Positions 13,191 through 15,649 of a stretch of 31,766 nucleotides of DNA are shown in pieces. Origin of the DNA: Promethearchaeota archaeon (lineage in GTDB: Archaea > Asgardarchaeota > Lokiarchaeia > Sigyniarchaeales > SOKP01). The stretch's first letter is position 1; the number at the start of each line of letters is the position of its first letter. The notes below the pieces were generated by a model, which was given only the letters and a program-made list of their open reading frames with translations, was not told the origin of the DNA and searched no databases. The translations under genes and the position numbers were made by a program. The stretch is from assembly GCA_004524535.1 (NCBI GenBank), contig SDNY01000034.1, positions 1 through 31,766 of the forward strand, given 5' to 3'.

Positions 13191-13290
13191 TAACTTTTTT
13201 ATTCTCACTTTTTTAATGATTTGAGTTTAGATAATGATAAATTCACGTAATTTAGTATAGATAAAAAAGAAAAAAAAAAAATTAAAATTT

Positions 13291-14443
13291 CTACTCTGTT
13301 TTCTCTTCCCTACTCTCCCAGAATCCTTTTTTATTTAGAAATATTCCGATATAGACCAACGACAACATTATAGGAACTTCCCAGAATGACCCTTTCATAG
13401 TAAATCTATGAATCGTATAGTCCCATGGTAGTCCCTAATGCCGCGATTGATCCAACTCCATACATAGCAATTGCGACGGCAATAGCAATCTCAAAGTGGC
13501 TTGAAGATCCAATGATTATAGTAATTATTGCCTCTCGATAACTTAATTTTGTTAATTTTGTAATTATAATATTAATACTGACAACTATCGCAAATCCTAT
13601 AAGAAGTGGGATTGTAATCAGCAGCAATAAATCTGGACGCCGAACGATTATTTGCCCGTTTAAAGAGAATAATACAACCAAAGTCATTAAAAGCGCGCCG
13701 ATTGCTATTTTTGAAATCGCAGGTCTATATTTATTGTCAAACCAGTCTTCTCCTTTCGCATTTATCAAAAGTTTCTTACTTATTATCCCCAGCAATAATG
13801 GAGCTCCAATAAAAATAAACAATGAAATTAGCAAAAGAACTGGATCCAAAGGTATATTTTTTTCCAAAGTAATATTTGCGATGAATACCATGAGCATAAT
13901 TACCGGAATATATAGTACGATGATCGTCGCTGTATTTATGCTGGTTGTTATTACATTTTGTTCCTGATTCCCCTTAGCCATGTTTAGGGTCTATAAGGTA
14001 AATCCTAATATTAGATATCCCCAAACGAGAACCATGGCTGTGCAAGGACTGCTACTAAGCAGAATAATCGCAAATATTAACTGCTCATCTTCTAAAAACA
14101 AAATCGCCATTGCTATACCTATTAAAGGTGCAATTATCCAATTTGAAATTAAAGTGAGAATGATAGGTTTCGGATTTTTGCCTAATTTTTTAATTTCAGA
14201 TGCTTGAAGATTTAACATCGCGGGATACATCATAAAAAATAAGCAAATACCAATTGGTATTGAAATCCCTCTCACTTGCCATGAGTCTATTGATTCGCTT
14301 ATAGTCGGAATCACGTTAGATAGAAAGATTCCGAGAGCCATGCATAAAATAATCCAGATCGGAAGGAGTTTTTCAAAATAACCTAATCCTTTTCGCTTTT
14401 CTTCTTTATTTTCTAATTTTTCTTTATTGTTTAATTCATTCAT
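13291..14443 (-). CDS. acr3: Acr3 arsenite efflux permease, three exons (14443-14017, 13983-13417, 13385-13291), 362 aa after splicing
   Basis: MMYPAM, SNWIIAP, PCTAMVLVWGY|MAKGN, SSHFEIAIAVAIAMYG, MGLF|WEVPIML; exon lengths 427+567+95 = 1089 nt with no internal stop. Confidence 0.88.
13386..13416 (-). other. 31-nt BHB-type intron 2 in acr3
   Basis: GACU/GGUC 4-bp helix, bulges AU^A and AU^U, inner stem UUCAUAG/CUAUGAA; contains an in-frame UAG and shifts the frame. Confidence 0.82.
13984..14016 (-). other. 33-nt BHB/BHL-type intron 1 in acr3
   Basis: GGGG/CCCU 4-bp helix, bulges AU^A and AA^A, inner UCUA/UAGA and AGG/CCU, exon-exon stem AGCCAUG/CAUGGCU; in-frame UAG. Confidence 0.8.
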
Positions 14444-14469
14444 TTTTTTATTTTAGAATAATTTTAGTT

Positions 14470-14512
14470 TGAGATATTAACAAATTATCTCACATAAAAA
14501 TTTATCGATTTA
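14470..14512. promoter_or_regulatory. Candidate operator region between acr3 and arsR
   Basis: Inverted repeat TGAGATA-N9-TATCTCA plus TTATCGATTTA. Confidence 0.4.
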
Positions 14513-14578
14513 AATAAAAATTTATAAATCTGTCTTTGCATTATAATAATTAGAAGTATTTTTTAATAAGAAGATTAG

Positions 14579-14989
14579 GTGTTTATCATTAAAGTCAAGC
14601 GTGTAAATGAAATTAAAGCAATGCTATGTTGTTGTGAAGATATCACAAATACAAATGAATATTTTAAAGAATTAAAAGAATTAGGAGAAAATTTGAGAAA
14701 TAATAATCAATTAAATAGTCTCCTTGTTTTTCTTAATGCTTTAAGTAATAAAGAACGCCTCATAATATTTAGCTCTTTAAAAGAGAAAGATAGATGTGTT
14801 TGTGAATTAGAAATAATTCTAAATAAATCTCAACCTTCAATATCTCATCATTTAAGAATACTTGAGGGTGCTGGTTTAATCCGAGGATGGAAAAAAGGAA
14901 AATTTACATATTACGGAATAGAACATAAAAATTTTAAAATAAGTCAAACGGATTTTATTGAGAATTTAACTTTAGAAAAAATTGCCTAA
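14579..14989 (+). CDS. arsR: ArsR/SmtB family regulator (3)
   Basis: MLCCCED, DRCVCELE, SQPSISHHLRIL; clear paralogue of 10886-11269. Confidence 0.92.
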   Translation: MFIIKVKRVNEIKAMLCCCEDITNTNEYFKELKELGENLRNNNQLNSLLVFLNALSNKERLIIFSSLKEKDRCVCELEIILNKSQPSISHHLRILEGAGLIRGWKKGKFTYYGIEHKNFKISQTDFIENLTLEKIA

Positions 14990-15229: not shown

Positions 15230-15649
15230 TTAAAAGGAATAGACTATAAGATCCTCAATCTTTTCAAAATGCTTTCGATTATTCGTAATGATTTCTTTAA
15301 ATTCATTTGTAAGTATTACAGCTGAAATTAGGCAATCAAAAATATCTATTTCTTGACCTTTACCTTTCAATTTCATATGTATTTTTGCCCCGAGATTAGC
15401 AGCATTTTCATTTAAGGAAAATGTTTCTAACCGGTTAATGAATTTCTTTAAATCTCCATTGAGTCTTTGGTATTCTTGCTTTGAAATTTTTTTCTTCAGA
15501 TATTTTAACTTATAAATACCAAGAAAAAGTTCAAAAATGGAAGGGCTAGTTATTCCAAATTTATCTGTCTTGAATTTATTCAACACTTCTTCAAGAGTAA
15601 CAGCACCATTTAGAATCTCAATGGCACTACTTGTATCTAAAAAAATCAT
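15230..15649 (-). CDS. vapC: PIN-domain toxin
   Basis: IFLDTS, FEL, FDCLISA, ITNNRKHF. Confidence 0.93.
   Translation of the reverse strand: MIFLDTSSAIEILNGAVTLEEVLNKFKTDKFGITSPSIFELFLGIYKLKYLKKKISKQEYQRLNGDLKKFINRLETFSLNENAANLGAKIHMKLKGKGQEIDIFDCLISAVILTNEFKEIITNNRKHFEKIEDLIVYSF

Follow-up and report, generated by a model that had tools for sequence, protein, structure and literature searches.

The stretch of DNA analysed here (the window) is a 31,766-nucleotide contig of a Promethearchaeota archaeon of the order Sigyniarchaeales (SDNY01000034.1, assembly GCA_004524535.1), and it carries an Acr3/SBF arsenite-efflux gene in pieces. We refer to the genome of the window as G000, to a congener as G005 and to other relatives by further G numbers; L numbers denote individual loci or contigs, and C numbers contigs. 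The gene lies on the minus strand from 14443 to 13291, where translation table 11 gives three open reading frames (ORFs) at 14443..13991, 13981..13406 and 13398..13291. Both large pieces match PF01758 (Pfam SBF), and the gene is single-copy in G000, a genome that is 99% complete and gave only this one match. A homologue is present in 35 of the 39 other genomes first searched, in every case as a single open frame of 342-455 aa, bar one that ends at a contig edge. Compared with these uninterrupted homologues, the window gene has two additions: 33 nt between VWG(Y/W)(M/L) and AKGNQEQN, and 31 nt between TTMGL and FWEVP. Excision at the registers expected of bulge-helix-bulge (BHB) introns restores VWGYMAKGNQ and TTMGLFWEVPIM, which agree with the uninterrupted homologues in sequence and length. 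The junction codons become GGA-UAC-AUG (GYM) at the first site and CUA-UUC-UGG (LFW) at the second, and the spliced ORF has 362 codons, the exact length of the family. The parts of the gene, with the inserts named as the introns that we take them to be, are as follows.

14017..14443, minus strand: exon 1, 427 nt, with its ATG at 14443 and ending ...GGGGAU (from the ORFs, Pfam SBF and homologue alignment).
13984..14016, minus strand: intron 1, 33 nt, phase 1, with an in-frame TAG and a relaxed BHB of the form HBh' (from sequence, fold and orthologous copies).
14019..14022, minus strand: GGGG, the exon strand of the central helix H (4 bp) in intron 1, pairing with CCCU at 13989..13986.
13417..13983, minus strand: exon 2, 567 nt (from the ORFs, Pfam and alignment).
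13386..13416, minus strand: intron 2, 31 nt, phase 1, frameshifting and with a TAG inside, of the canonical form hBHBh' (from sequence, fold and orthologues).
13419..13425, minus strand: exon half of the helices of intron 2, with the 5´ strand of H (GACU) at 13422..13419 and that of h (UGG) at 13425..13423; the 7 pairs are invariant in 11 sequences.
13291..13385, minus strand: exon 3, 92 nt followed by the TAG stop at 13293..13291.

A BHB site consists of a helix H with a 3-nt bulge on each strand, and the RNA is cut after the second base of each bulge. The same description is given in the examined text of a preprint on Asgard tRNA introns (10.64898/2026.10.13.758758). An earlier reading of the window from its letters (the sequence-only reading) had placed two inserts of this type within 13386-14016, each starting at AU^A, capped by GAUUUAC and complementary at its 3´ end to its own upstream exon. 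This description is borne out base for base. In both introns the exon ends in ...AU and the first intron base is A (AU|A), and the apex G-AUUUA-C lies at 14004..13998 in intron 1 and at 13406..13400 in intron 2. Helix H has the same position in both, being formed by the four nucleotides that precede the last two intron bases and the four exon nucleotides that precede AU; to the CCCU/GGGG pairing of intron 1 corresponds a 4-bp pairing of GGUC (13391..13388) with the exon GACU in intron 2. Intron 1 has the 5´ bulge AU|A, an inner helix h' of UCUA (14015..14012) with UAGA (13993..13990), a hairpin AGG-AUUUA-CCU (14006..13996) and a 3´ cut after AA (13985-13984). Intron 2 has the bulges AU|A (5´) and AU|U (3´), the pair C13415 x G13392, and a 7-bp stem of UUCAUAG (13412..13406) with CUAUGAA (13400..13394) closed by the loop AUUUA (13405..13401), such that h' consists of 1 bp, a 2x1 loop and 7 bp. 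Its exon UGG pairs with CUG (13384..13382) to give a 3-bp outer helix h. Intron 2 has both of the bulges by which BHB introns are recognized. Fold z-scores are -3.18 for intron 2 and -1.89 for intron 1. Two other kinds of element were considered for the inserts. A self-splicing group I or II intron, or a member of an Rfam family, is not supported: no Rfam match below E = 0.37 was found in 13200..14600, and the inserts measure only 31 and 33 nt. A DNA insertion of the kind left by miniature inverted-repeat transposable elements or insertion sequences is likewise rejected; a repeat search gave no repeat linking the two Acr3 inserts, there are no further copies, and the duplications at the ends are short, with 2 nt in intron 2 and an offset CUAA in intron 1.

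Both inserts recur in relatives at the same positions. The survey covered 153 genomes of the order, 131 of which have Acr3, and 12 loci with short frames or with matches running into an insert were inspected. A 31-nt insert is present at the exact site of intron 2 in six genomes of two other genera in the same family (G076, G100, G103, G110, G118 and G119), and G076 also has a 33-nt insert at the site of intron 1. Pattern searches across the 153 genomes gave no further carriers of either intron. A scan of species genomes recovered the same six carriers of intron 2, and a scan of metagenome contigs added seven loci that carry intron 2; intron 1 is present as well in three of these (L054, L059/L060). 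Exon frames are intact and conserved on both sides in 14 of 14 intron-2 loci, which comprise 11 distinct flank sequences. In the 11 distinct sequences of intron 2, 94.1% of the structure cells are paired, compared with 39-55% when partners are slid, and variable columns make up 6/11 of the unpaired but 2/20 of the paired positions (Fisher p = 0.012). In intron 2, the loop GAUUUAC is confined to G000 and L056, the other orthologues having GUUUUCC or GUUUUAC, and the third bulge base is G in L059. At intron 1, the BHB register in G076 and L059 yields GGA-UGG-AUG, the majority consensus GWM, and the adjacent register would make a stop. Second copies of Acr3 were seen at L030 (G043:C242) and L031 (G044:C160); in these, TAG replaces the TGG of FWEVP that is present in every other copy, and the frames are short (269 and 290 aa).

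The Acr3 introns are not isolated cases. A census in which ORFs from 2.30 Mb (about 70%) of the congener G005 were compared with G000 by tblastn gave 49 interruptions with a sharp peak in size: 21 at 30 nt, 4 at 31 nt and 3 at 29 nt. Removal of duplicate queries left 30 candidates of 24-36 nt. With splice registers movable within a small protein-score tolerance, a perfect H together with an h' of at least 3 bp was found in 13 of 27 candidates at the true register, as against 0, 0, 1, 1, 2 and 5 in six partner-shift decoys. Five unclear registers were dropped (C26 on both strands, C113, C156 and C46), giving a curated set of 26 inserts, 25 from the census plus Acr3 intron 2. The length is 30 nt in 18 of these, 31 nt in four, 29 nt in two, and 26 nt and 33 nt in one each, and BHB geometry is present in all 26. 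Helix H is complete (4/4) in 18 and has 3/4 pairs in eight, and the last two intron bases are AA in 21/26; these counts are somewhat optimistic, as structure had a part in the choice of the curated registers and an A preceding the 3´ cut was slightly favoured. Of the 26, 22 have A as the first bulge base and 25 have A or U as the first intron base, and an in-frame stop lies inside 25/26. At least 7 of 9 stem pairs form in 17 of the 18 30-nt members; among these 18, the loop has U at position 4 in 14 cases and C at position 5 in nine. The outer helix h has at most 2 bp in 23 of the 26, and the class is therefore mostly of the relaxed HBh' form. The common format can be written as one A or U, a 9-bp stem with a 5-nt loop, a 4-nt segment complementary to the exon, and AA. 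In the opposite direction, ORFs of G000 compared with 1.19 Mb of G005 yielded a single strong case of 30 nt. On C2 of G005, near 89788-89925 (+), two class-format 30-mers share a gene at a distance of about 107 nt; one has its orthologue at C52:18534-18563 in G000, and no strong insert specific to G005 was found besides the other.

The hosts, named from Pfam matches of their G005 orthologues, include essential and core genes. They comprise the genes for RNA polymerase A', which has two introns, for EF-2, RNase HII, GyrB and an ELP3-like radical-SAM protein. Further hosts are CODH/ACS alpha, beta (two introns) and delta, argininosuccinate synthase (ArgG), aldehyde:ferredoxin oxidoreductase, TldD/PmbA and POR, together with three genes for Ras/Arf-type GTPases (one with two introns) and one for an E2 ubiquitin-conjugating enzyme. 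The remaining hosts are SCP2, an MBL-fold protein, DUF2507 and one gene with no Pfam match. The sequence-only reading had remarked that both Acr3 introns sit beside highly conserved motifs, and this extends to the class: protein identity to the congener is 89.8% close to the junctions compared with 82.6% gene-wide, and it is higher in 18 of 22 cases. The host list also bears on whether the inserts are scars in decaying genes that are never removed. Each insert does bring a stop or a frameshift, and relatives of the same genus have an uninterrupted Acr3, as pseudogenes would predict. Against this, the exons remain open and conserved on both sides in all the intron-2 loci, the inserts are length-stereotyped and BHB-shaped, and the same format occurs in RNA polymerase A', EF-2, GyrB and RNase HII of a nearly complete genome as well as in tRNA and 23S rRNA genes (see below). 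On account of the hosts, gene decay is excluded in practice, and we give it almost no weight.

Two of the hosts were followed across relatives. A search for EF-2 in 40 relatives found in-frame stops and about 30 extra nucleotides in five genomes (G000, G001, G020, G012 and G011) from four genera of the family, and in 0/16 genomes of the other three families. All five EF-2 inserts are BHB introns of 30 nt in which H pairs completely (4/4) and the stem has 8-9 of its 9 pairs. They occupy four positions, two of them inside the AHIDHGKT P-loop. The EF-2 intron of G000 has an evident homologue in G001 and G020, from which it differs by lying 6 nt downstream, on the second unit of a tandem ACAGAT-TCAGAT, and by a change of its exon-pairing 3´ segment from CUGU to CUGA. 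In an EF-2 paralogue (about 34% identity), one in-frame stop each was seen in L224 (G011:C272) and L225 (G028:C85). Among the 38 genomes with a match to the gene for RNA polymerase A' (rpoA1), 13 show in-frame stops in it, and a 30-nt BHB intron was confirmed at one common site in G000, G006, G021 and G010. The four hairpins at this site are unrelated in sequence, and yet 96.2% of their cells are paired, compared with 36-50% with slid partners; a compensatory change on both sides is seen in 8 of 13 pairs, and none of 500 shuffles reaches the observed covariation score. For the rpoA1 stops of G001, G009, G022, G025 (f3), G036 (f2) and G026 (f4), which include other families, our script found no matching insert. 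Two gaps in the rpoA1 of G011 are not BHB-like. Loops differ among orthologous EF-2 introns and among orthologous rpoA1 introns, as they do among orthologues of Acr3 intron 2, and the constancy of the loop among homologous introns that the sequence-only reading expected is thus contradicted at all three genes.

The class is found outside coding genes as well. We built a log-odds profile of the 30-nt format from 16 homology-defined seeds; MAFFT alignments lost the family register, and a covariance model from three EF-2 introns was too sequence-specific and drew antisense and partial matches. In G000 the profile gave 36 sites above 18 bits (33 distinct) compared with 2 in the reversed genome, and 24 compared with 0 above 20 bits; leave-one-out scores of the seeds range over 10.3-24.5, from which its sensitivity is roughly half. 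In 2.30 Mb of G005 there were 9 sites, against 2 in the control, and three sites are common to the two genomes. The profile added split coding sequences on C74, C52, C165 and C181 of G000. One site lies within 23S rRNA (Rfam LSU, 227.9 bits), and three lie in tRNA genes, where removal of the 30-mer lets aragorn call tRNA-Cys, tRNA-Gln and tRNA-Arg. The tRNAs that emerge in this way indicate that the tRNA set of G000 is heavily interrupted. In its intron mode, aragorn reports only 22 tRNA genes in this genome, many of them with odd intron calls. The many further instances, which lie in split coding sequences, tRNA genes and 23S rRNA of this genome and of other Asgard archaea, are what the sequence-only reading had anticipated. 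At one of these common sites (C188:21885-21914 (-) in G000, near 44560 (+) on C4 of G005) the exon flanks and the 3´ segment CGAT are the same in both genomes and the 9-bp hairpins are unrelated, which reflects either intron replacement or very fast turnover of the stem. Four identical class-format 30-mers (GTGT ca|T CCGATTCTT TTTTC AAGATTTGG GCAA AA) were seen near contig ends of G000, at C93:46-75, C34:49-78, C50:11861-11890 and C166:4761-4790; from this position they are probably within a multi-copy element that breaks the assembly.

The occurrence in tRNA and rRNA genes also speaks to the idea that ribosomes bypass the inserts by programmed translational hopping, as in T4 gene 60 or the yeast mitochondrial byps. 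Insert 1 offers a possible take-off and landing pair, with CUA at 14014..14012 and again 27 nt downstream, and its stop lies within a hairpin. A hop from CUA to CUA would, however, add two residues to a motif of invariant length, whereas the BHB register gives the consensus length, and GWM in G076. Insert 2 has no matched codons that would preserve FWEVP, and the tRNA and rRNA genes in which the same class occurs are not translated. The members in these genes and the length of the product at intron 1 exclude hopping, and we consider it highly improbable.

The enzymes expected to act on such introns are encoded. G000 has two paralogs of the tRNA-splicing endonuclease EndA, in the regions of C100:31106 and C84:30615, each of 201 aa with N- and C-terminal domains and 29% identical over 121 residues, and the ligase RtcB (561 bits). 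In the parts of PMC5829648 consulted, the Asgard EndA is described as an (alpha-beta)2 type with an L1 insert, associated with relaxed substrates and broad specificity. We consider it probable that both Acr3 inserts are archaeal BHB introns in pre-mRNA, as the sequence-only reading had proposed from their geometry, and members of a stereotyped, mostly 30-nt class that interrupts dozens of coding genes as well as tRNA and 23S rRNA genes in this genome and family. In the splicing pathway that we envisage, the transcript would fold such that the four exon bases ahead of the 5´ cut pair with the four intron bases ahead of the 3´ cut, a pairing that can be read from the sequence. The heteromeric EndA would then cut after the second base of each 3-nt bulge, and RtcB would join the exons into the 362-codon Acr3 mRNA, probably releasing small circular introns. 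The assignment of cutting to EndA and of joining to RtcB on these mRNAs is inferred.

A further alternative accepts removal of the inserts and assigns it to something other than EndA and RtcB, be it another RNA-processing activity by which the U-rich loop and the A-rich bulges are recognized, or an excision from the DNA itself in a fraction of the population. The preference for AA at the intron end and for U and C at loop positions 4 and 5 would suit such an activity; EndA is not known to require sequence preferences of this kind, and BHB cleavage needs no fixed length of 30 nt. The geometry nevertheless matches EndA substrates exactly, members of the class lie in tRNA genes, in which intron removal is known to be the task of EndA, and both EndA and RtcB are present in the genome. 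A DNA form of this organism's gene that lacks the introns was not seen in the reads, which were uninformative. We regard removal by another activity as unlikely.

Several observations weigh against interpreting the inserts as spliced BHB introns, in addition to the choice of registers in the curated set. First, in an unbiased genome scan for BHB geometry combined with ORF fusion, the true registers were not enriched relative to partner-shift decoys, whatever the stringency. A descriptor tightened to a complete H (4/4), 7 bp or more of h' and an A preceding the 3´ cut had about 1400 matches in true and shifted registers alike, and with ORF fusion it had 22 matches compared with 12-19 in shifted registers. 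Second, intron 1 of G000 is without an outer helix h, and its minimum free energy fold extends H to a continuous 8-bp helix with no 3´ bulge. It would therefore need an enzyme of relaxed specificity; the version in G076/L059 can form 2 bp of h. Third, Acr3 intron 2 shows no compensatory change: H and h are invariant, and its helices never vary on both sides. Fourth, read assembly on the locus gave only short pieces of relatives, and no contig bridges either Acr3 junction, a result that is uninformative either way. Among sequencing runs, one contains the whole window and may be its source, and one RNA run contains a 0.05 share of the sampled words. The BHB geometry of the two Acr3 inserts is nonetheless beyond chance, as judged from the fold z-scores and from its recurrence throughout the curated set.

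The relation between the two Acr3 introns and the origin of the class are separate questions. The sequence-only reading took the shared AU^A start and GAUUUAC loop as the signature of a mini-intron family. Its more general part holds, since an A-rich 5´ bulge and a U-rich pentaloop are features of the class and AU|A matches the real class consensus A-N|A. The exact loop does not hold, as the orthologues of intron 2 show. GATTTAC occurs 864 times in the genome compared with about 865 by a rough composition-based estimate, 53 of these within hairpins of at least 4 bp, and its presence in both Acr3 introns is not beyond chance. The common apex is a coincidence within the U-rich loop consensus, and in intron 2 GAUUUAC is a derived state. 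The same reading had suggested that both introns descend from a single spreading mobile mini-intron, the stem and 3´ end of which adapted to each site. Some features of the class lend themselves to this suggestion: the stereotyped format, with the majority of the curated introns exactly 30 nt long, the presence of two introns in several genes, and the EF-2 intron displaced by 6 nt along its tandem target with a matching change in the exon-pairing segment. Gains are also recent and patchy. In an exon-only Acr3 tree of 30 rows, from which two partial genes were excluded, G000 nests with intron-less congeners with 100/100 support, the intron-bearing genes are scattered, and well-supported branches force at least three gains or losses.

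The flanks of the Acr3 introns add to this picture, since they resemble those of intron-bearing alleles, G076 for intron 1 and G103 for intron 2. Over the 38 nt upstream of intron 1, G000 has 1 difference from G076 compared with about 8-10 from its congeners, and over about 25 nt on each side of intron 2 it is identical to G103. Such identity would fit a short-patch transfer of intron plus flanks between alleles, and it would fit equally well a structural constraint on the flanks, in which case it is no argument for spreading. The sequences of the introns themselves also speak against a common mobile ancestor. Introns 1 and 2 are alike only in the 7-nt apex. Searches of G000 with both introns by blastn-short gave nothing above the scores of shuffled queries, and no copy was found outside Acr3 in the 153 genomes; the core of intron 2 (at most 2 mismatches) had 4 extra hits, two in open frames and two non-coding, compared with 2 in the reversed control. 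Among 33 members of the class the top pairwise identity is 20/30, equal to that of column- and pair-preserving shuffles (mean top 20.3), the sole exception being the EF-2 intron. Descent of the two Acr3 introns from one spreading element is therefore doubtful in our view. For the class as a whole, movement is suggested by the EF-2 shift and by the flanks of the Acr3 introns, and the lack of similarity to any donor copy points against copying. One possibility, to which we attach moderate confidence, is that a stereotyped 30-nt BHB mini-intron class is still active in one Promethearchaeota family. It would have colonized dozens of coding genes, among them those for RNA polymerase A', EF-2, GyrB, small GTPases and E2, as well as tRNA and 23S rRNA genes, and it would move between alleles and neighbouring sites, as in the EF-2 shift and in the case of Acr3, where both introns would have entered a lineage of alleles that is otherwise free of them. 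The archaea most closely related to eukaryotes would then have genes in pieces at scale, processed by EndA and RtcB, with recognition or origin tied to the A-rich bulge and the U-rich pentaloop.

The neighbours of Acr3 in the window are two further ORFs. The nearer one is divergent from Acr3 and lies beside it, and the second lies beyond the first.

14579..14989, plus strand: 136-aa ORF (from the ORF list), presumably an ArsR-type helix-turn-helix regulator, as judged by eye from its motif.
15230-15649, minus strand: 139-aa ORF, which we take by eye to be a PIN-domain protein.

If the introns are spliced as proposed, dozens of genes per genome, including those of core information processing, need the tRNA-splicing machinery to process their mRNAs, and this in the lineage of archaea nearest to the eukaryotes. 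For annotation this matters because such genes are currently called fragments or pseudogenes. The recent, datable gains, together with the sliding case in EF-2 and the allele-transfer case in Acr3, make the arrival of BHB introns directly testable. The in-frame stops in nearly all curated introns raise the question of how coupled transcription and translation copes with unspliced messages. In the full-text literature we found no report of BHB introns in protein-coding genes of Asgard archaea; the search did not extend to subscription journals and supplements, and an earlier description is possible.

Several known systems invite comparison. HAC1/XBP1 mRNA is spliced by protein enzymes at stem-loops, and the exons are sealed by tRNA ligase (RtcB in metazoans); the endonuclease is Ire1, and there is one regulated target. 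The class described here differs in that EndA would take the place of Ire1 and in that it is genome-wide. In the tRNA intron transposition families of Thermoproteales, reportedly described by Fujishima and colleagues in 2010, BHB introns are said to appear at new sites with a 3´ part that fits the new exon. The Thermoproteales tRNA introns form 26 families at 70% identity, according to the examined text of the preprint (10.64898/2026.10.13.758758). Those families are recognizable by sequence identity, whereas the members of the present class are alike only in architecture. A BHB element in the 5´ untranslated region (UTR) of Haloferax HVO_1309 likewise lies in an mRNA on which EndA acts, as far as the consulted parts of PMC7714728 describe it; unlike the introns found here, it is a single case in a UTR and interrupts no reading frame.

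Closest in lineage are the non-canonical tRNA introns of Asgard archaea (10.64898/2026.10.13.758758), which share with the present class the presumed machinery, repeated recent gains at BHB-competent sites and the lack of a detected copying route. In the examined text, that study concerns tRNA genes only, with median intron lengths of 22-23 nt, and mentions neither coding or rRNA hosts nor a 30-nt format; three members of our class are in tRNA genes. Closest in kind is the intron in the cbf5 pre-mRNA of Crenarchaeota (Watanabe 2002; Yokobori 2009, PMC2738675), also a small BHB intron in a coding gene, presumably processed by a hetero-oligomeric EndA and with patchy gain and loss. According to the parts consulted of PMC2738675, no coding-region BHB intron is confirmed for genes other than cbf5, and the corresponding parts of PMC7714728 likewise name cbf5 as the only confirmed case. 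In contrast to that single case, the introns described here occupy dozens of hosts per genome in a different phylum (Asgard); their format is fixed at 30 nt, and a gene may contain as many as two of them.

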